Origin: an uncultured Actinomycetota bacterium
GTDB taxonomy: Bacteria > Actinomycetota > Actinomycetes > Propionibacteriales > Nocardioidaceae
Reading direction: 5' to 3'
DNA: 64,000 nucleotides
Assembly: GCA_963795115.1 (NCBI GenBank)
Contig: CAWCGH010000003.1
Span: 222,950-286,949, forward strand
Position 1 is the stretch's first letter. Each line of letters begins with the position of its first letter. The translations under genes were made by a program, and so were the position numbers. Of this stretch, positions 5,318 through 17,992 are shown piece by piece. The notes below the pieces were generated by a model. It was not told the DNA's origin, did no database searches, and saw nothing but the letters and a program-made list of their open reading frames with translations.

Positions 5318-6211
5318 CTAGGCCCGCCGCTCCACCCGCGCGCGGCGAGCCGCGCGCCGCAGCGTGGTGAGCACCGCCGGCCCGAGCAGCGCGATCGCGA
5401 GCGCGTTGGTGATCGCGCGGCCGGTGTCCCAGCCGCCGGTGGACGTGAGCAGCGTGTAGACGACGAACCGATGCAGGTTCTCGAAGAGGGGGGCACCCGG
5501 GACGTAGGACAGGTCGGTCGAGTCCTGGCCGGGCACCTGGACGCCGAGGATGAACGGCCAGCCCCAGAGGTTCATCAGCAGTCCGTAGGCGTAGGCCGCG
5601 AGCATGCCGTACGCGACGAGCATCACGATCTCGCCGCGGCCGGTGACCCGCCGCGGCAGCAGTCCGGCGAACATCCCGACCCAGCCGGCGACGAGCATCT
5701 GGAACGGCAGCCAGGGACCCACGCCCGCGGTCATCAGCGCGGACGCGAACAGCGAGGTACAGCCGAGCACGAAGCCGAAGCCGGGGCCGAACACCCGCCC
5801 GCCGAGGATCAGCAGGAAGAACACCAGCTCCAGCCCGGCGGTGCCGGCGCTGACGCCGCGCAGCACCGCGTTGACCGCACTGAGGACACCGAGGATCGCG
5901 AGGACCCGCGCGTCCATGCCGCCCTCGCTGATCTCGGCGAGCACGACGGCCAGGATCAGCGGCAGCAGGCCGAGGAAGAGGAACGGCGGATCCACGCGCT
6001 CGGTCGGGTCGGCCTCGAGCAGCAACGGCCAGCCGAGCATCATCAGCCCGATCAGCGAGGTCAGGCCGAGGACGACGACCGACCGCAGCCGCAGGGGTAC
6101 GGCGACGCGACGCCCCTCGTCGACGACGGCACTCACGTTTTCGGGGTCCCCGCTGGGTTGTTCGCTGGAGGAGCGAAGCGGGGGAAGCGAAGAACCCGGT
6201 GGGGTATTCAC
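5318..6211 (-). CDS. cbrT: ECF transporter S component, cobalamin-specific CbrT type
   Basis: GTG start overlaps the ATPase stop (GTGA); GGRVFGPGFGF and GVGPWLPFQML motifs; last gene of the cobalamin-riboswitch operon. Confidence 0.75.
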   Translation of the reverse strand: MNTPPGSSLPPLRSSSEQPSGDPENVSAVVDEGRRVAVPLRLRSVVVLGLTSLIGLMMLGWPLLLEADPTERVDPPFLFLGLLPLILAVVLAEISEGGMDARVLAILGVLSAVNAVLRGVSAGTAGLELVFFLLILGGRVFGPGFGFVLGCTSLFASALMTAGVGPWLPFQMLVAGWVGMFAGLLPRRVTGRGEIVMLVAYGMLAAYAYGLLMNLWGWPFILGVQVPGQDSTDLSYVPGAPLFENLHRFVVYTLLTSTGGWDTGRAITNALAIALLGPAVLTTLRRAARRARVERRA

Positions 6212-7863
6212 GTCGGCACCTCCGCGTTCGCCTGCGCGTCGGCGGCGAGCGCGGCCGCCACCTCGTCGACGCGAAGCCACCCCGGCCCGAGCACCTTCGT
6301 CACCTGGGGTGCGAACGCCGGCGACTCGGCGACCACCCGACGGACGGGCCCGTTGGACACCACCTCGCCCTCGGCGAGCACCACGACGTCGTCGGCGACC
6401 TGGGCCGCGAACTCGACGTCGTGGGTGGCGACCATGATCGCCCGGCCGTCGACCGCGAGGCCCCGAAGGATCTCGGCCAGCGCGTGCTTGCCCGGGTAGT
6501 CGAGGCCCCGCGTCGGCTCGTCGAGCAGCAGCACCGGAGGGCCCGCGGTGAGCACGATCGCGACGGCGAGGGCCAGCCGCTGGCCCTCGGACAGGTCGCG
6601 CGGATGTCCGGCCGGGTCGATCCCGGGTGCCAGCCGCGCCAGGAGCCCGGCGCAGGTGCCGGAAGCCGCAGCCGCCGTACGGTCTGCCGCTGCGCACTCC
6701 TCCGCCACCATCTCCAGGTAGAGCAGGTCCGCGGGGCTCTGCGGCACCAGGCCGGTCGAGCGACGGCGGGCTTCCCCCTTGAGCCGGTGCGGGTCGTCGC
6801 CGGAGACGCGCACGCTGCCGCTGGTGGCGGCGTACCGGCCCTGGAGTGCCCACAGCAAGGTCGACTTGCCTGCTCCGTTGCGGCCCATCAGCGCGGTGAC
6901 GGTTCCCGGCCGGAGCTCGAGGTCCACCTCGTTGAGCGCCCGGACCGACCCGTGCGCGACGGTGAGGCGTCGTACCTGAACTTCCGGCCCGGTTTCTGTC
7001 GAGAATCGGGCCGAAGCTTCAGGTACGACGGGCTCCGGACCGGGCGGGGAGCCGATCCGGCCCAGCAGGTCGGTGGTACGACGACGCGCGTCGCGCACGG
7101 TGAGCGGGAGCGGCGACCAGCCCGCGAGCCGGCCGAGCTCGACGATGGGCGGGGCGATCGGGGCGTCGACCAGCAGCTCGGCGGGATCGCCCACCCGGAG
7201 CTGCCCATCATGGCCACCGGTCCCCAGCAGGCAGAGCCGGTCGGCGAACGGAACCACCCGCTCGAGCCGGTGCTCCGCGACGAGGACGGAGACGCCGAGG
7301 TCGTGGACCAAGCGGGTGAGCGTGGCAAGCACGTCCTCGGCGGCGGTCGGGTCGAGGGCGGAGGTGGGCTCGTCGAGCACGAGCAACCGCGGGTGCGTGG
7401 TGAGGACGGAGCCGATGGCGACCCGCTGCTGCTGGCCCCCGGACAGGGTGCGCAGGTCGCGGTGACGGAGGTCGGCGATGCCGAGCAGGTCGAGCGTCTC
7501 CTCGACCCTGCGGCGCATCGTGGGTGCCGCCAGGCCGAGCTGCTCCATGCCGAACGCGAGCTCTTCCTCGACCGTGTCGGTGACGAACCACGCGGGCGGG
7601 TTCTGCCCGACGTACCCAACGATGTGCGCACGCTCCCGCGCCGGCCGGTCGAGCACGCTCTCCCCGTCGATGACCACGTCGCCGGTCAGGGTGCCGCCGG
7701 TGAACGCCGGCACCAGGCCGGCGACGACCCCGAGCAGGGTCGACTTGCCGACCCCGGTGGGACCGGCGAGCAGCATCAGCTCGCCGTGGTCGACGGCGAC
7801 GTCGACGTGGTCGAGGACCGGCCGATCGCCGTAGCTGAAGGTGACGTCGCGCAGCTCGAACAT
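6208..7863 (-). CDS. ECF transporter ATPase with two fused ABC domains
   Basis: Two Walker A (GPTGVGKST, GRNGAGKST), two signatures (LSGGQ, LSEGQ), two Walker B (LDEPT). Confidence 0.92.
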   Translation of the reverse strand: MFELRDVTFSYGDRPVLDHVDVAVDHGELMLLAGPTGVGKSTLLGVVAGLVPAFTGGTLTGDVVIDGESVLDRPARERAHIVGYVGQNPPAWFVTDTVEEELAFGMEQLGLAAPTMRRRVEETLDLLGIADLRHRDLRTLSGGQQQRVAIGSVLTTHPRLLVLDEPTSALDPTAAEDVLATLTRLVHDLGVSVLVAEHRLERVVPFADRLCLLGTGGHDGQLRVGDPAELLVDAPIAPPIVELGRLAGWSPLPLTVRDARRRTTDLLGRIGSPPGPEPVVPEASARFSTETGPEVQVRRLTVAHGSVRALNEVDLELRPGTVTALMGRNGAGKSTLLWALQGRYAATSGSVRVSGDDPHRLKGEARRRSTGLVPQSPADLLYLEMVAEECAAADRTAAAASGTCAGLLARLAPGIDPAGHPRDLSEGQRLALAVAIVLTAGPPVLLLDEPTRGLDYPGKHALAEILRGLAVDGRAIMVATHDVEFAAQVADDVVVLAEGEVVSNGPVRRVVAESPAFAPQVTKVLGPGWLRVDEVAAALAADAQANAEVPT

Positions 7864-7864
7864 C

Positions 7865-8986
7865 TCAGGCCGCCAGCTCCGCCGGCTCCGCCACGGGCTC
7901 GGGAAGGATCGGTGCGCGGTTCTGCGCCGTGAGTGGTGGCGGGGCCAGGAACACCGGCGCGACACCGACGAGTACGGCGACGATCGCGCCGAGGCTGAGC
8001 CCGGGTACGACGAGCACGCCGGGGTGGGCGACGAGCGGGTCGGCGCGCTGCACCAGCCACAGGCCCGTACCGACGACGGCGCCGGACAGCGCGACGAGCA
8101 CCTCGGCGGAGCCCCACCGCTCCGGCCGGTAGCGGGTCCGCTGCACCCGGCGACCGGCGAGCACGAACCCGCCGAGCGCGGCAGTGACACCGAGCCCGAG
8201 CATCGGCCACGCCAGCACCCGCGGCGCGCTCGAGTCGAGGAACGCGTAGACGCCGACACAGATGCCGATCAGTCCGACGATCATCAGCGCCCCCGTGGTG
8301 CGACGCTGGCCCGCGGTCGCCGTACCACTGCGGCCGTAACCGCGCGCGTCCATGCCGGCTGCGAGGGCCAGCGATCGCTCGAACGCGTCCTCGAGGATCG
8401 GCACGAGCAATCGTCGTACGCCGCGCACCCGACCCTTCTCGCCGCCGCGCAGCTGCTGGGCCGCTCGTACCCGCCGGGCGCTGTCGGCGAGCTGTGGGAT
8501 CACCGTGATCGCGACGACCATCGCCGTACCGATCTCGTAGAGCGCCGGCGGCAGCGACTTCATCAGCCGCTTCGGGTTGGCGAGCGCGTTGGCCGCGCCG
8601 ACCGCGATCAGCAGGGTCGCCAGCCGGAGGCCCTCGTAGATCGCGGCCAGCAGCTCCTCACGGCTGAACGGGCCGAGCAGGCTGATGCCCGCAGCCCAGG
8701 CCGGCAGCGGGATCTCCGGCATCGAGAGCAGCACGTGTCCGGCGTCGTTGCCGCCGACGAGGACCCGGAACAGCACCCTGACCACGAGCACGACCAGCCC
8801 GAGCCACAGGTAGAGCCGGAACGACCGCGCCCACGGCTGGTCGCCGCGGCACGCGAAGACGGTGATGGTCGCGACCGCCAGCAACAGCCCGAGGAGGAAC
8901 GGGTTCGTCGTGCACGAGGCGCCGACCGCGAGACCGACCGCCCAGCACCACCAGGCGACCGGGTGGAGGTCCCGCGGCATCCTCAT
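7865..8986 (-). CDS. ECF transporter transmembrane T component (CbiQ/EcfT family)
   Basis: Hydrophobic; ERSLALAAGMDARGYG motif; ATGA overlap with the upstream gene. Confidence 0.88.
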   Translation of the reverse strand: MRMPRDLHPVAWWCWAVGLAVGASCTTNPFLLGLLLAVATITVFACRGDQPWARSFRLYLWLGLVVLVVRVLFRVLVGGNDAGHVLLSMPEIPLPAWAAGISLLGPFSREELLAAIYEGLRLATLLIAVGAANALANPKRLMKSLPPALYEIGTAMVVAITVIPQLADSARRVRAAQQLRGGEKGRVRGVRRLLVPILEDAFERSLALAAGMDARGYGRSGTATAGQRRTTGALMIVGLIGICVGVYAFLDSSAPRVLAWPMLGLGVTAALGGFVLAGRRVQRTRYRPERWGSAEVLVALSGAVVGTGLWLVQRADPLVAHPGVLVVPGLSLGAIVAVLVGVAPVFLAPPPLTAQNRAPILPEPVAEPAELAA

Positions 8987-9885
8987 CCGGTGCGCCGCCG
9001 GAGCAGGGTCACCAGGCCGGCGGCGCCGAGCACGAGTACGGCGAGACCCAGACCGATCCAGGTCGTCAGCGCACCGCCGTCGTCGTCCGACGGGTCCGTC
9101 GCGAGGTCGCTCGGCGGCGGTCCGGCGGTGATCTCCGCCGCGCCGGGCACGGTGCTGGTCGCGGACGTCGGGTCGGTGCTCTTCGACTCGGGCTTCCTCG
9201 GGCGCCCGGGCGAAGCCGACTCGGTGGTCGTCTCCGCCGTCGTGGCCACCGACGACGGCGCTGACGTGGTCGGCGCCGACGTGGTCGGCGCGGCCGTGGT
9301 CGCGTCGTCGCTGCTCCCGTTGCCGCCGTTGCCGCCGTTGCCGCCGTTGCCCCCGTTGCCCCCGTTGTTGTCGGACGGGTCGTCCGACGGCTCCACCGGC
9401 TCCTGGTGCGGCGTGGGCGCATAGTCGGGCGGCTGCGCAGGGCCCCCGCCCTCGTGCCACGCGAAAGCGACGTACCCCCCGTCCGGGACGGTCATTCCAC
9501 CGACGCCCTGGTTGGAGAACCGCCACTCACCGGACTTGCCGTCGGACCACCACAAGCTCCAGAACGAGTCGTTCTCGAGGCACGGGCGGTCGTCGGGGAG
9601 GCCGGTGATCTTGCAGACGTAGCCGGGCTGGCGAGGGTGGTACTCCAGCGAGAACCCGGCGCCCGGGAACACCTCGGACGCGCTCTGCCCGGCTCCGTCC
9701 GGATCGCAGCCGGCCCGGGACGGACCACCGACTTCGTTGTAGTCGACGATCACCGTCACGCCGTCGGCGCCGCGACACACGGCGACCGCGGCGCCCGCCG
9801 CCGGTGCGGTCGCGGGGGGCATCAGGACACCGGTTGCCGCCGTCACGAGGACGGCGACAGCCGCCGGGAGTGTCTTGATGAGCAT
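8983..9885 (-). CDS. Secreted, C-terminally membrane-anchored protein with a DUF4430/transcobalamin-beta-like domain and an S/T/P/G-rich stalk
   Basis: Signal peptide; GYVCKITG...FWSLW...W.FS..G...DGGYVAFAW; (GNG)n and T/S/P linker; TM helix plus RRR tail. Confidence 0.65.
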   Translation of the reverse strand: MLIKTLPAAVAVLVTAATGVLMPPATAPAAGAAVAVCRGADGVTVIVDYNEVGGPSRAGCDPDGAGQSASEVFPGAGFSLEYHPRQPGYVCKITGLPDDRPCLENDSFWSLWWSDGKSGEWRFSNQGVGGMTVPDGGYVAFAWHEGGGPAQPPDYAPTPHQEPVEPSDDPSDNNGGNGGNGGNGGNGGNGSSDDATTAAPTTSAPTTSAPSSVATTAETTTESASPGRPRKPESKSTDPTSATSTVPGAAEITAGPPPSDLATDPSDDDGGALTTWIGLGLAVLVLGAAGLVTLLRRRTG

Positions 9886-9891
9886 CGCCAG

Positions 9892-11466
9892 TCAGCCGAC
9901 GCGGTACGACGCCGCATTGCGGCGGTCCTTGAACCGGCCCAGCACGACGACATCGTGCTTGCCGCGCTGGCGACCGACGCCGTAGTCGGCCACGAAGCGG
10001 CCGGCGGCGTTCGCCTTGCCGCGCGCGACCACCACGCCGTCGTCCTTGACGACGACGGGCTCGCGTGCCCACAGGCCGCGCACCACGACGTGCTGCTTCC
10101 CACGAGGCGCGACCGACGACTTCAGGTCGAGGGGCAGCTTCTTCGCGGACAGGACGACCGGGCCGGAGACCCCCGCCGCCTGGTCGACCGCGTCGGCCGT
10201 GATCTGGATACGCCCGGAACGGTCCGGCACCCGGATCCGCACGCGGGCGATGCCGTCGCTGTCGCCGACGACGTGCCGGGAGTTGCGACCCATGCTGACG
10301 CACGCGCCTTCGCCGGGCGCCAGCCCGCGGACGACGACGAGCTGGCGCCCGCCACCGTCGAGGAAGGCCGGGATCCGACCGAGGGCGATCTCGCCCGTCT
10401 CGGACGCGGGCGCGACGGCGAGGGCCGGCAGCGCCTGGATCGTGGCGAAGTCCCACTGGCCGGCCGTTGCGACCTTGATGCCGTTGGCTGCGCCGGCGTT
10501 GTACGCCGCGTTGTCGTAGGCGATCGCGCCGGTCTCCTCGGAAAGCTTGCCCTCGCAGTGGAGCCCGGCCACCTGCCGACCCCGGATCCACGTCGCGGCC
10601 TGCTCGGCCGCCTCGTGCTGACCGATCAGGTCGAGCGCGTGCCCGGCCAGGCCGGTGCTGTTCGTGTTGGGCCCCTCCGTCGCCGTACCACCGTCGAACG
10701 ACCCGTCGGCCGCCTGCTGGTTCAGGATCCACGCGATCGCGTCGGCAACCGCCGCGTCGCGCGCCGCGTCGAGGCTCGGCTCGGCGATGTCGAGGTCCTG
10801 GATCAGGATCACGACCTGTGCCGCGGTGTCGACGGGCGGCTTCGGGGCGCTGCAGGGGGTGCTGAAGTTGAGGTTGAAGAATCCGGCGCCGCACTGGCGG
10901 CCGAGAAGGAACTCGGTCGCGGCAGCTGCCTCGGACGAGCCCGCAAGGGTCAGTCCACGCACCGCCCAGGCCTGGCCGAACACGTTGGAGAAGTCGCCGA
11001 ACGTGCTGACGTCCTCGATCCGGCCGGAGTTCTTGGTCACGCTCTCCAGTTGGGCGACCAGGTCGAGGCCGCCGAACGAGGTCGGGGCGTCGGGCGTGTG
11101 GTCCAGGACGAACGACAACAGCTTGCCGGTCGAGCCGGCGTAGATGTCGGAGCCCGGCGAGGTATACGCCTCGGCATTGTCCTCGAGCGCGTCGGCGATG
11201 GTCGGGATCTCGGGCGAGGCGCCCGCGGCGTCGAGCGCGTACGCCGCTTCGACGGTCGCGCCGAAGTCGTCGAAGTTGAACTGGTCGTTGTGGATCAGGC
11301 CGCCGGTGAGCTCGCTCAGCAGCCAGAGCGCGCCGAGCTGACCCGGACGAGGGTCGGCGTCGTGCGCGTGCGAGGCCGGGGTCGGCCCGGCGAGGACGAG
11401 GCCGGACGCCAGGAGCGAGCCGCCGAGGGCGGCTGCGCCGAACCGGCGAAGAGTAGAGGTGGACAT
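9892..11466 (-). CDS. Secreted alpha6/alpha6-barrel (prenyltransferase/squalene-cyclase repeat-like) protein with C-terminal beta-rich domains
   Basis: Signal peptide; repeats FLLGRQCGAGFF, WILNQQAADGSF, WIRGRQ; NTNSTGLAGHAL; first gene after the riboswitch. Confidence 0.7.
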   Translation of the reverse strand: MSTSTLRRFGAAALGGSLLASGLVLAGPTPASHAHDADPRPGQLGALWLLSELTGGLIHNDQFNFDDFGATVEAAYALDAAGASPEIPTIADALEDNAEAYTSPGSDIYAGSTGKLLSFVLDHTPDAPTSFGGLDLVAQLESVTKNSGRIEDVSTFGDFSNVFGQAWAVRGLTLAGSSEAAAATEFLLGRQCGAGFFNLNFSTPCSAPKPPVDTAAQVVILIQDLDIAEPSLDAARDAAVADAIAWILNQQAADGSFDGGTATEGPNTNSTGLAGHALDLIGQHEAAEQAATWIRGRQVAGLHCEGKLSEETGAIAYDNAAYNAGAANGIKVATAGQWDFATIQALPALAVAPASETGEIALGRIPAFLDGGGRQLVVVRGLAPGEGACVSMGRNSRHVVGDSDGIARVRIRVPDRSGRIQITADAVDQAAGVSGPVVLSAKKLPLDLKSSVAPRGKQHVVVRGLWAREPVVVKDDGVVVARGKANAAGRFVADYGVGRQRGKHDVVVLGRFKDRRNAASYRVG

Positions 11467-11469
11467 GCG

Positions 11470-11498
11470 TTCCTTCCCGCTGCAACAGCGGGAGGGAA
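11470..11498 (-). promoter_or_regulatory. RBS-sequestering hairpin (riboswitch expression platform)
   Basis: ttccctcccgctg-ttg-cagcgggaaggaa on the minus strand; the 3' arm contains GGAAGGA just before ATG 11466. Confidence 0.65.
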
Positions 11499-11556
11499 CC
11501 GGTGGCCGGCCCAACCCGCTGCTCTCCGCGACAGCGTGTTCGTCAGGTAGCGCCGC

Positions 11557-11670: not shown

Positions 11671-11696
11671 ATCCCGCAGGGGGCGACCCCGCGAAC

Positions 11697-13205
11697 TCAG
11701 GTGAGCTTCTCGAGGATCAGCGCGCGCACCCGACCCGCGTCGGCCTGCCCCCGCATCTCCTTCATGACCGCGCCGATGAGCGCGCCGGCGGCGGCCACCT
11801 TGCCGTCGCGGATCTTGTCGGCCACATCGGGATTGGCGGCGATGGCGTTGTCAACAGCGGCCGACAGGGCGCCGTCGTCGGAGACGATCTCGAGGCCGCG
11901 GGCGGCGACGATCTCCTCGGGAGTGCCCTCGCCGGCGAGCAGGCCGTCGAACACCTGCCGGGCGAGCTTGTCGTTGATCCGGCCGCTGTCCACGAGTGTC
12001 TGGACGGCGGCGACCTGCGCAGGCGTCACGCCCAGCGCATCGATCTCGGTGCCCGTGTCGTTGGCGCGCCGGGCCAGCTCGGAGAGCCACCACTTCTTCG
12101 CCGCCTGCGGAGCGGTCCCAGCCTTGATGGTTTCCCTCACCACGGCTAGCGCGCCAGCGCCGACGACATCTCGCATCTCGAGGTCGGAGAAGCCCCAGTC
12201 GGCCTGCAGTCGGGCCCGCATCGCCGTGGGGTTCTCGGGCAACGTGCCGCGCAGCTCCTCGACCCACTCCCGCGACGGGGCGACGGGCACCAGGTCCGGC
12301 TCCGGGAAGTAGCGGTAGTCCTCGGCGTCGGACTTCTCGCGACCCGACGTCGTGACGCCGGTGTCCTCGTGCCAGTGCCGGGTCTCCTGCAGGATCCGCT
12401 CCCCCGCGTCGAGGATCGCGGCGTGCCGCGACATCTCGTAGCGGACGGCGCGCTCGACCGAGCGCAGCGAGTTGACGTTCTTGGTCTCGGTGCGGGTGCC
12501 AAGGACGTCGGAGCCCGACGGAGCGAGCGAAAGGTTGACGTCGGCGCGGATCGAGCCCTGCTCCATCCGGGCGTCCGACACCCCGAGCGCGACAATCAGG
12601 TCGCGGAGCTGGGCGACGTACGCGCGTGCGACGTCAGGCGCCTTCGCGCCGGCACCGGTGATCGGCTTGGTGACGATCTCGATGAGGGGGATGCCGGCCC
12701 GGTTGTAGTCGACCAGCGAGTAGTCCGCACCGTGGATCCGGCCCGTCGCGCCACCCACGTGGAGAGACTTGCCGGTGTCCTCCTCCATGTGGGCGCGCTC
12801 GATCTCGACGCGGAACGTCTCGCCATCGCCATCTTCCGTCGGCACCGTGACGTCCATGTAGCCCTCGAAGCAGATCGGCTCGTCGTACTGCGACGTCTGG
12901 AAGTTCTTCGGCATGTCCGGGTAGAAGTAGTTCTTCCGCGCGAACCGGCACCACTCGGCGATCTCGCAGTTCAGCGCCAGCCCGATCCGGATCGCCGACT
13001 CGACCGCCTTGCCGTTGACGACCGGCATCGAGCCGGGCAGGCCGAGGCAGGTCGGGCAGACCTGGGTGTTCGGCTCGGCACCGAATTCCGTCGGGCAGCC
13101 GCAGAACATCTTGGTGACGGTGTTGAGCTCGACGTGGACCTCGAGGCCCAGCGCCGGGTCGTACGACGCCAGCACGTCGTCGAAGGCCACCAGCGTGTCA
13201 GTCAT
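11697..13205 (-). CDS. gatB: Asp-tRNA(Asn)/Glu-tRNA(Gln) amidotransferase subunit B
   Basis: [35 protein letters not shown]; ATGA overlap with gatA. Confidence 0.97.
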
Positions 13206-15282: not shown

Positions 15283-15541
15283 GTTCGACGGCCGCACGCA
15301 CAGCCGCCTCGCGCGCCCGGTGTCGGAATACGAAACGCAACCGGTCGAGTAGTGCCGCAGAGTTAAACGACGGTCACATTCCCATAACGAAGGCCGCCCG
15401 GGGGGCCAGCCTTCTTCCCGGGTGACCGCCGTCACGGCGAAGATCTTGTGGCTGGTCCCGAAACGGGACCGCTGTCCATCACTCGGGGAGGACACTGGTG
15501 ATCCCGTTTGTCCTGTCCCTACTCGGAAGACAGGATCGACA

Positions 15542-17992
15542 ATGAAGTTGTCATCTCCATCTCGGCGCAGGGCGTGGGCCCTGGTCGCGTCGGCAGGCCT
15601 CCTGACCGGCGGCCTCATCGCGACCGGCCCGGCCACGGCTGAACCCGTCGACGACACCACGTCGCAGGGCCGCGGCGCCAAGGTCGTGGACACCGGCCAC
15701 GAGCCGAAGCACCCGCTGAAGATCAAGGCGAAGCGCGACGCCCAGCGCCAGGCAGCGCTCGAGGCGAAGCTCACGGGCAAGAAGGTCAAGAACAAGGGCA
15801 AGGGCCAGGAGGTGCCGCTCGAGCTCGAGGGCACCGACAAGATCTTTGTCGTGCTCGCCGAGTTCGGCGACCTCCGCTACGAGACGGCGACCGACAAGCG
15901 GTTCACCGACACCCCGCCGTTCACGCTGCCGAACCCGCAGCCGCAGCGCTACGACGGTCCCCTGCACAACCAGATCCCGGAGCCCGACCGCACGGTCGAC
16001 AACACGACCCTGTGGCAGCCGGACTTCGACCGTGCCCACTTCGAGGACATGTACTTCAACCGGATGAAGGAGTACTACGAGGAGCAGTCGTCCGGCCGGT
16101 ACTCCGTCGACGGTGACGTCACCGAATGGGTCAAGGTGCCCTACAACCAGGCCCTGTACGGGCGTGGCTACTGCGGAACCCCGCCGGGCGCACCCGTCAC
16201 GACCTGCGCCTCCACCAAGGCGCTCGTGCGCGACGCACTGGCGCTCTGGGTCAAGACGCAGCTCGACAGCGGCCAGACGATGACCCAGATCCGCGACTAC
16301 CTGAAGACGTTCGACGTCCAGGACCGCTACGACGTCGACCTGGACGGCAACTTCGACGAGCCCGACGGCTTCATCGACCACTTCCAGATCGTCCATGCGG
16401 GCGGCGACGAAGCGGCCGGCGACCCGACCTACGGGTCGGACGCCATCTGGAGCCACCGCTGGTACAGCAACCTCCAGGGCGGAGGCCCCGGTGGCCTGAC
16501 CGGTGTGAACATCGGCTCCAACGGCGGTGCGTTCGGACTGGGCAGCAACCCGGCCAACCCGGTCCCGAACAACCCGACCGGTGTGTGGGTCGGCGACTAC
16601 ACCATCCAGCCCGAGAACGGCGGACTCGGCGTCTTCGCGCACGAGTTCGGCCACGACCTCGGCCTGCCCGACCTCTACGACACGTCCGGAAACACCGGCG
16701 GTGCCGAGAACTCGACCGGCTTCTGGACGCTGATGTCCAGCGGCGCCAACATCGGTGACGGCGGACCCGACGGCATCGGCGACGCTCCGACCGACCTCGG
16801 CGCCTGGGAGCTGTTCCAGCTCGGTTGGCTGAACGCTCAGGGCGCCAACGGTCCGTTCTACGACGTCGCGTTCGCAGGCGAGGCGTCGCAGCACACGCTG
16901 TCGGACAACGCACCGGCGATGAACAACGGGGCGCAGGCCCTGTTCACCGTGCTGCCGGACAAGGAGGTGCCGACGACCATCGGCACGCCGTACGCCGGCA
17001 CGCAGATGTTCTGGTCGACCCAGGGCGACGATCTCAACACCTCCATGACCAAGACCGGCATCAGCGGCACGGCCCTGACCGCGCAGGTCAACTACGAGAT
17101 CGAGGACGACTGGGACTACGCCTTCCTGGAGGCCTCGACGGACGGCGGAACCAGCTGGACGCCGGTCGTCACCAACCTCTCCGACACCGCGCGTGACGGC
17201 CAGAGCGGGTTCAACACCAGCCGGACCGGGTTGACCGGCAACTCGGGCGGCTGGTCTGCCCTGACCGCAACGCTGCCGGCGGGCACCAATGCGGTCCGGT
17301 TCCGCTACCAGACGGATGGCGCCGTCGCCGAGCAGGGTCTACGGGTCGACAACATCGCCGTCGACGGCACGATCATCGGCAATGCCGAGTCGGACGAGGG
17401 CTGGACGTTCAACGGGTTCAAGCGCACGACCGGCACCGAGGTGACGACGTACTTCAACGCCTACGTGGCGGAGAACCGGCAGTACGACGGCTACGACACC
17501 TCGTTGAAGACCGCCTACAACTTCGGGTTCCTGAACACCCGGCCTGACTGGGTCGAGTCGTACAAGTACCAGGACGGCCTGCTCATCTCCTACTGGGACA
17601 ACTCGTACGCGGACAACAACGTGGGTGACCATCCCGGCCACGGCCTGATCCTGCCGGTGGACGCCCACCCGGAGTTCAACCACTGGCCGGACGGGACGCT
17701 GATGCGTCCGCGCATCCTGACTGCCGACTCGACCTTCGGCCTCAAGGCGACCGACCCGATCAACCTCCACCTCAACGGTGTCTCCGGGAAGATCGGCAAG
17801 AAGCCGGCGGTCCGGACGTTCGACGACACGCTGTCGTGGTGGTCGGGAACCGACGGTCACGAGGTCGGCGGAACCCACCCCGGCCGCTACCAGGCCGGCT
17901 GGTACGGCGTCGACGTGCCGAACACCGGCACGACGATCCGGGTCGTCTCCGACAAGAAGGGCATCGTGACGGTGGCGGTCGCACCGAAGTGA
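15542..17992 (+). CDS. Immune inhibitor A-like secreted metalloprotease (M6 family)
   Basis: Signal peptide; [14 protein letters not shown] zinc motif; [13 protein letters not shown]; WTLMSSG. Confidence 0.92.

Follow-up and report, generated by a model that had tools for sequence, protein, structure and literature searches.

How a bacterium might capture corrinoids outside its membrane and hand them to an importer is the question raised by a five-gene operon of an uncultured Actinomycetota bacterium (assembly GCA_963795115.1, contig CAWCGH010000003.1, positions 222,950-286,949 of the forward strand; this whole stretch of 64,000 nucleotides is called the window, and coordinates without a prefix refer to it). 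The operon lies on the minus strand and consists of a probable cobalamin riboswitch leader followed by gene A, which encodes a secreted toroid, gene B, which encodes a stalked beta domain, and the genes for EcfT, a fused EcfAA' ATPase and the S component of an energy-coupling factor (ECF) transporter. The host genome (4.6 Mb in nine contigs) is of Nocardioides type, and the homologues all come from Nocardioides, Pimelobacter or Aeromicrobium. A preliminary description had proposed that genes A and B are the two halves of a transcobalamin-type binder that assembles at the cell surface and serves the transporter, and every gene it described is found in its place on the minus strand. The analysis presented here makes it probable that the operon is a B12-repressed corrinoid capture-and-import system of a Nocardioides species.

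Gene B (8983-9885, minus strand; 300 residues) encodes a protein with a transcobalamin-beta-like (SLBB) domain, a stalk and a membrane anchor. A signal peptide (~9787-9885) is followed by the beta domain (~9436-9780), by a stalk of ~120 residues rich in Ser, Thr, Pro, Gly and Asn (~9061-9435), and by a C-terminal hydrophobic segment, WIGLGLAVLVLGAAGLVTLL, that ends in RRR (~8986-9060) and reads, from its sequence, as a membrane anchor and not as an LPXTG signal. The motifs GYVCKITG, FWSLWW and DGGYVAF are present, the signature WSLWWSDG...VPDGGY is conserved in the family, and four Cys, invariant or nearly so among the homologues, probably form two disulfides. The Cys-containing domain, its motifs, the Ser/Thr/Pro/Gly-rich stalk and the C-terminal anchor are all seen as they had been described.

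An AlphaFold2 (AF2) model of residues 30-155, made with 46 homologues, is confident, with a predicted local distance difference test score (pLDDT) of 87.9 and a predicted template modelling score (pTM) of 0.83. [quoted passage not shown] When the model was compared with the PDB by Foldseek, the best 19 matches were all beta domains of transcobalamin (TC), haptocorrin or intrinsic factor (IF), or the DUF4430 structure 3u7z, with probabilities of 0.77-1.00 and template modelling (TM) scores of 0.61-0.70 normalised to isolated beta-domain targets; the matches that follow (DIX, ubiquitin-like) have probabilities of ~0.5 or lower. According to the model, the small domain of gene B has the transcobalamin beta/DUF4430 fold, and the beta-domain homology that had been put forward is sustained by this fold search. 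Furthermore, gene B fits the transcobalamin-like SLBB clade by its fold, its signal peptide and anchor, and the adjacent toroid and ECF genes.

Gene A (9892-11466, minus strand; 524 residues) encodes a secreted alpha/alpha-toroid protein, in which an N-terminal signal peptide (~11362-11466) precedes the toroid (~10411-11361) and two immunoglobulin (Ig)-like domains (~9895-10374), and the C terminus has neither a transmembrane segment nor a sorting signal. The AF2 model (pLDDT 93.1) contains a single alpha/alpha toroid of 12-13 helices (residues ~40-351) and, at residues ~365-524, two C-terminal Ig-like beta-sandwich domains that the preliminary description had missed. There are also shorter homologues that lack one or both Ig-like domains. 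The signal peptide carries a twin-arginine-like motif, TLRRFGAAAL (11440-11466); an RR-x-hydrophobic motif occurs in 27 of the 52 gene A homologues and is absent from a fused relative (genome G216, described below), and export of the pre-folded toroid by twin-arginine translocation is possible.

The affinities of the toroid are broader than those of the beta domain. The family profile of gene A matches the QW repeats of squalene-hopene cyclase (SHC) at 6.8e-20, and it also matches drimenyl diphosphate synthase and the thioester-containing domains (TED) of complement C4 and alpha-2-macroglobulin, while gene A itself matches the NCBIfam family NF053823 ('SCO2321 family membrane protein') at 3.4e-11. 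By Foldseek the barrel matches drimenyl diphosphate synthase at a TM score of ~0.4. For comparison with transcobalamin, an alignment was built from database transcobalamin-2 records, found with a human TCN2 sequence that served as bait only; it holds only mammals, at identities of at least 72%. Against this alignment hhalign returns a local match of 60 columns (E 0.006), in which P-V-D-T-A-A...A-W-L-x-x-Q-A-A-D-G-S-F...N-S-T-G-L-A of gene A is aligned with SVDTAAM...AQTPEGHFGNVYSTPLA of TC (S-V-D-T-A-A-M...A-Q-T-P-E-G-H-F-G-N-V-Y-S-T-P-L-A), and gene A has no His in this alignment where TC has its cobalt-coordinating histidine. In a broad sense the toroid and the TC alpha domain share a superfamily, but the toroid is not specifically TC-like. 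Of the earlier claim about gene A, the secreted, unanchored toroid is borne out by the AF2 model, and the specific likeness to transcobalamin is not.

The leader of the operon contains a probable, compact cobalamin riboswitch aptamer (RF00174; 11545-11672, minus strand) with the core GGGAAGCCGGT-N-CCGGCGCTGACCCGCAAC. The Rfam covariance model scores it at 29.5 bits (local E 1.3e-5), which is two bits short of the gathering score of 31.5, and this sub-threshold score reflects the compactness of the aptamer. Of ten loci that were scanned at the Rfam cut-offs, L010 and L066 have orthologous leaders that exceed them, with 35.7 and 37.3 bits, and 76 of the 78 related loci whose upstream sequence is long enough have the core 130-280 nucleotides (nt) before the toroid gene; the riboswitch proposed earlier is probable on these grounds. 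A hairpin that lies between aptamer and start codon (11469-11500, minus strand), found by reading the sequence and in both the minimum free energy (MFE) and centroid folds, pairs the ribosome-binding site GGGAAGGAA, just upstream of the gene A start codon, and is a probable translational expression platform. This pairing fits translational control, and the leader probably regulates at that level. The fold energy of the whole leader is no better than that of shuffled sequences (MFE z-score -0.9, not significant). Only two other cobalamin riboswitches are found in the host genome, upstream of cobG-cobH and cobN, and the operon is the host's only riboswitch-controlled importer. The riboswitch points to a corrinoid substrate.

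Two further observations concern the surroundings of the leader. The stop codon of gatB (11697), on the same strand, is separated from the first base of the aptamer by only ~25 nt (11673-11697), so the operon promoter must lie inside the 3' end of gatB or the operon must be reached by read-through from gatCAB. Scans for promoter and terminator consensus sequences around the leader and after the S gene, which are uninformative in a high-GC actinomycete, found none. In two relatives a strong canonical cobalamin riboswitch is found near the operon, at L115:575-768 (minus strand, 91.6 bits), where it is oriented away from the operon, and at L046:392-610 (minus strand, 84.6 bits).

The three remaining genes encode a complete ECF module. 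EcfT (7865-8986, minus strand), the transmembrane coupling component, belongs to the CbiQ family (Pfam PF02361, 1.7e-11), the fused EcfA-EcfA' double ATPase (6208-7863, minus strand) contains two ABC_tran domains (PF00005, 5e-54) and matches NCBIfam ECF_ATPase_1 and ECF_ATPase_2 at ~260 bits each, and the S component (5318-6211, minus strand) matches the ECF_trnsprt family (PF12822, 7.3e-12). EcfT, dual ATPase and S component had all been named in the preliminary description, and these family matches agree with it. EcfT, two EcfA domains and an S component are encoded together, as in group I (dedicated-module) ECF transporters, and the S component is the sole PF12822 protein in the host genome. 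The ATG of EcfT overlaps the stop codon of gene B (8986), and the ATPase and S component genes likewise stand in overlapping start/stop contexts; reading of the sequence finds start and stop codons overlapping or abutting across all five genes, which are translationally coupled.

The same layout recurs in relatives. In 80 Nocardioides-type loci, the order alpha-beta-EcfT-EcfAA'-EcfS behind a riboswitch is preserved wherever the contig reaches, though a few of these loci have one additional gene inserted or contain the alpha-beta pair twice, and the order of riboswitch core, alpha, beta, T, AA' and S is the same in four loci of other Actinomycetota genomes (L129, L132, L133 and L134). Across Actinomycetota the pair is tightly linked to cobalamin riboswitch and ECF module. 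The S component is 65-91% identical across the phylum. Its identity to the S component of a Streptomyces-like locus is 65%, whereas alpha and beta are only ~31% identical between the host and that locus. In a set of 1.84 billion proteins the beta-domain profile gathers 1,933 clusters at 50% identity, and it matches 30 of 301 sampled Actinomycetota genomes (25 of 199 genera); canonical DUF4430 occurs in a further 53 of the same 301 genomes, mostly small genomes of other classes.

Several loci depart from the common arrangement. L010:5000-10400 (Nocardioides sp. TF02-7, NZ_CP092535.1) has a tandem duplication, with a further toroid gene and a further four-Cys beta gene placed after the first pair and before EcfT, and the stretch between the two pairs translates like riboswitch leader and may contain a second aptamer. 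In L046:7928-8728, and at the same place in L053, L056, L058, L059, L061, L074 and L075, an extra gene of ~266 codons stands between beta and EcfT, and its product has a signal-anchor, a long low-complexity region of Pro, Gly, Ser and Asn, and a C-terminal transmembrane segment. In the Streptomyces-like genome G191 (L116:7604-8370), a DUF4430-like gene that stands alone directly follows a weak cobalamin riboswitch (27.1 bits); none of the operon's ECF genes is present in the 16 kb covered, and this gene may encode a B12-regulated solo beta-domain protein.

Two relatives bear directly on how the toroid and the beta domain work. In genome G216 (L129:4108-6381), one clean open reading frame of 758 codons encodes a signal peptide, a toroid, a four-Cys beta domain and three CWB2 cell-wall-binding repeats (Pfam 4e-31), and the fusion is followed by a separate stalked, membrane-anchored beta protein of the gene B type and then by the ECF genes. 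The natural fusion is evidence that toroid and beta domain cooperate, as they do in transcobalamin. Two other candidates for alpha-beta fusions from the set of 1.84 billion proteins, P0260 (896 residues) and P0355 (665 residues), were rejected as frameshift or gene-call artefacts, since their linkers are Arg-rich and of an out-of-frame type and their beta parts retain a signal peptide. The Streptomyces-like locus L115 has the order riboswitch (26.9 bits), beta, T, AA', S, alpha and DUF4430; its toroid ends in an LPLTG sortase signal, and its last protein passes Pfam DUF4430 at 33.6 bits.

From the gene structures, both folds, the anchoring signals, the riboswitch linkage, the conservation of the operon and the fusion in a relative, we infer a corrinoid ligand, contact between the alpha and beta domains around it, a hand-off to the S component and translational control. 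When adenosylcobalamin is low, the leader would leave the ribosome-binding site of gene A accessible and the five coupled genes would be made. The gene A protein would be exported and retained in the cell envelope, possibly by its Ig-like domains, where it would present the toroid. The gene B protein would likewise be exported and would stay anchored to the membrane through its C-terminal helix, with the beta domain on a flexible stalk that could span the wall. There the beta domain, most likely in concert with the toroid as in transcobalamin, would bind a corrinoid from outside the cell (cobalamin or one of its precursors, for instance cobinamide), and the tethered beta domain would then pass it to the S component, so that EcfT-EcfAA' could import it using ATP. 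Within this capture-and-import reading, the version in which the two domains sandwich the ligand and the version in which they relay it are roughly evenly balanced.

The general idea is not new. Bacterial transcobalamin-like SLBB proteins that are secreted or anchored in Gram-positives and fused to alpha/alpha toroids were described by Burroughs, Balaji, Iyer and Aravind in 2007 (PMC1796856), who defined the clade by the hairpin after the helix, noted that CbiO-like and CbiQ-like genes, and in many cases another SLBB paralogue, share the operon, and predicted scavenging of B12 or its precursors; the carriers of these systems usually lack a B12 biosynthesis pathway (PMC1796856). The Nocardioides locus shares with them the extracytoplasmic beta-grasp domain with its post-helix hairpin, the association with a toroid, and the ECF-type ATPase and T genes; it differs in that toroid and beta domain are encoded by separate genes, in that the beta domain belongs to a four-Cys actinobacterial clade unseen by Pfam DUF4430, and in that the host has B12 biosynthesis genes. 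Animal TC, IF and haptocorrin (2bb5, 2bb6, 4kki and 2pmv) likewise combine an alpha6/alpha6 toroid with a beta-grasp domain, their beta domains can be superposed with the model of gene B, and the toroid repeat VDTAA...Q..dG.F...ST.LA is shared by TC and gene A. However, the animal carriers are single-chain, soluble and receptor-targeted, while the window proteins have no PF01122 or PF14478 matches and gene A has additional Ig-like domains.

Relatives are also found in the SCO2321/SCO2322 families of Streptomyces, family names without an assigned function. Gene A, as said above, matches the former, and the Streptomyces-like counterpart of gene B matches NF040672 ('SCO2322 family protein') at 3e-08, below the curated cut-off. 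The Streptomyces-like locus has the same operon content, and differs in its gene order, its additional Pfam-positive DUF4430 protein and its LPLTG-anchored toroid. Among the papers searched, none treats the SCO2321/SCO2322 genes functionally. Since B12 scavenging by such systems has already been predicted (PMC1796856) and a split alpha/beta pair has been described in L. sakei (10.1101/864751), the present locus is a clean example of a predicted, biochemically uncharacterised layout, and its particular traits are the split architecture, the Pfam-invisible, four-Cys, stalked beta clade, the Ig-like domains of the toroid and the B12-making host.

A number of results weigh against the corrinoid capture-and-import reading. 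At the level of sequence, searches with gene B (Pfam, NCBIfam and the PDB by phmmer and profile) return matches to the low-complexity stalk only, Pfam DUF4430 (PF14478, gathering score 23.8 bits) matches neither gene B nor any of 46 homologues at E up to 1, and a scan of the host genome with the DUF4430 model does not pick up gene B. Profile comparison by hhalign with a DUF4430 alignment, built here from 28 actinobacterial matches, gives only E 0.021, although the match spans the entire domain in the right structural register, and comparison with the mammalian TC alignment, which is shallow, gives no signal (E 0.52). Pfam PF01122 (Cobalamin_bind) matches neither gene A nor any of its 52 homologues, and class II terpene cyclases and TED domains are nearer to the toroid than TC is, both by sequence and by Foldseek rank; transcobalamin is absent among the best 50 Foldseek matches listed for the whole of gene A, a list dominated by proteins with Ig and macroglobulin (MG) domains. 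The S component matches none of the solved S components in the PDB by phmmer or by a profile of 27 sequences at E up to 10. Furthermore, the host carries genes for aerobic B12 biosynthesis, and uptake is not obviously needed; the sole functional study of such an operon, in Lactobacillus sakei, reported uptake of heme and not of B12 (10.1101/864751); and the anchored beta protein kept beside the complete G216 fusion weakens the simple picture of two halves.

In most descriptions ECF transporters need no binding protein, and ECF-CbrT of Lactobacillus delbrueckii, which transports vitamin B12, works, as characterised, without extracellular accessory proteins; CbrT-family operons are also regulated by B12 riboswitches. 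The Nocardioides module resembles ECF-CbrT in being an importer of the ECF type with a corrinoid as its expected substrate, and is unlike it in that its S component has no detectable similarity to CbrT or to any solved S component. There is also no CbrT model among its NCBIfam matches, and the 'CbrT-like' label of the preliminary description is not supported. As regards need, the gene content suggests that the host produces B12 itself, through the aerobic pathway. In such a B12-producing host, salvage, recapture, or uptake of precursors or alternative cobamides is possible, and the system might serve to take back cobamides of the host's own making, or to keep them private, once the pool inside the cell drops.

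The rival that survives best accepts the corrinoid and changes the division of labour: the toroid would be a scavenger or scaffold in the wall zone, and the anchored beta domain alone would be the substrate-binding protein that docks on the S component. The complete toroid-beta-CWB2 fusion of G216, still trailed by a separate beta protein of the gene B type, speaks for such a relay, as does the Streptomyces-like locus, in which a gene B-type beta stands at the head of the operon and the toroid and the Pfam-positive DUF4430 protein stand at its end. Since the anchored protein is kept beside the G216 fusion, gene B is not merely the detached half of the toroid, and a tethered shuttle to the S component is a possible role for it. 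In addition, the isolated beta domain of human TC binds cobalamin alone (PDB 5np4, among the Foldseek matches of gene B), and second paralogous SLBB proteins are on record in such operons (Burroughs et al., PMC1796856). However, in Nocardioides there is one beta domain only, and a toroid without a beta domain of its own would lack the partner that closes its site; moreover, the adjacency and translational coupling of genes A and B are invariant. On balance this rival is unlikely, though it deserves to be taken seriously. The split transcobalamin binder first proposed for the locus keeps the beta fold, the toroid, the linkage to ECF genes and riboswitch, and the fusion in its favour, and loses ground on the toroid, which is not TC-specific, and on the anchored beta protein beside the G216 fusion. 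We also entertain, tentatively, a more specific form of the corrinoid reading, in which the ECF transporter is served by a dedicated membrane-tethered binder, a Pfam-invisible, disulfide-stabilised beta domain that, on a stalk across the wall, shuttles corrinoid from a wall-located toroid scavenger to the S component.

Import of a different tetrapyrrole, such as heme, is very unlikely. The L. sakei preprint (Verplaetse et al. 2019, 10.1101/864751) proposes that the separate alpha-like and beta-like TC proteins of Lsa1836-1840 act as extracellular scavengers and feed an ECF S component with heme; deletion of the operon (lsa1836-1840) lowered the heme content of the cells, and models of the alpha and beta proteins allowed heme to be docked between them. 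The system resembles the present one in its split, exported, TC-like alpha and beta proteins encoded with EcfS, fused EcfAA' and EcfT. It differs in that its proteins are recognisable by HHpred as TC domains and in that heme was assigned by deletion of the whole operon; the Nocardioides proteins are far more divergent than these, and the Nocardioides beta protein is stalked and membrane-anchored. The passages covered of the preprint make no mention of a riboswitch. In contrast, the cobalamin riboswitch found here and in nearly all relatives, as counted above, makes no regulatory sense for heme, and the other cobalamin riboswitches of the host control cob genes.

Slightly less probable still is a B12-regulated ECF transporter for cobalt or another metal, beside which the two surface proteins would have an unrelated function in the wall. 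B12 riboswitches often control cobalt transporters, the EcfT matches a family named CbiQ 'cobalt transport protein', and a B12-making host needs cobalt. However, the S component is a PF12822 protein and not CbiM/CbiN, CbiM was not found in the host genome, and a gene for the cobalt transporter CbtA (C1:964119-964826) lies between the cobG-cobH and cobN riboswitch sites on the same contig (C1:952939-987842). The supply of cobalt is plausibly covered already because of this CbtA gene near the cob riboswitches, and a role in cobalt uptake is unlikely because of the type of the S component, which is the only one of its family in the genome, the missing CbiM and the presence of CbtA. The strict co-inheritance of the TC-beta fold and the toroid with the ECF module also speaks against it.

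Least probable of all is that gene A is an extracellular enzyme of the terpene cyclase or prenyltransferase type and gene B an unrelated hypothetical protein, a view that the preliminary description had already set aside: homologues bear the names 'terpene cyclase/mutase family' and 'prenyltransferase/squalene oxidase repeat-containing', and the best sequence and fold matches of the barrel are squalene-hopene cyclase and drimenyl diphosphate synthase, but the site aligned with D374-x-D-D of SHC reads P-[PDS]-[VT]-D-[TA]-T-A and never DxDD in the 52 homologues (it is xVDTA, and the central Asp alone is invariant), export takes the protein away from the isoprenoid diphosphate substrates, only one toroid is present where the cyclases have a two-domain architecture, and its gene stands under a B12 riboswitch with an ECF importer.

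Elsewhere in the window, beyond gatCAB, a gene at 15422-17992 (plus strand) encodes a secreted protein of 856 residues with a zinc-metalloprotease motif that resembles peptidase M6 (immune inhibitor A), and it is unrelated to the operon.

The acquisition of cobamides by Gram-positives, and by Actinomycetota in particular, is poorly understood. The paradigm is ECF-CbrT, which has no extracellular receptor, unlike BtuG/BtuB in Bacteroides. The operon family is widespread and consistently controlled by B12 riboswitches, yet its first two genes are annotated as 'terpene cyclase' and 'hypothetical protein'. The value of the locus lies in its being a well-supported and tractable example and not in a new concept, as both Nocardioides and Streptomyces can be cultured and genetic methods are established for Streptomyces. 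If corrinoid binding proves true, thousands of annotations would be corrected, a binding-protein-assisted mode would be added to ECF transport, and the bacterial roots of the animal B12 carriers would be documented.

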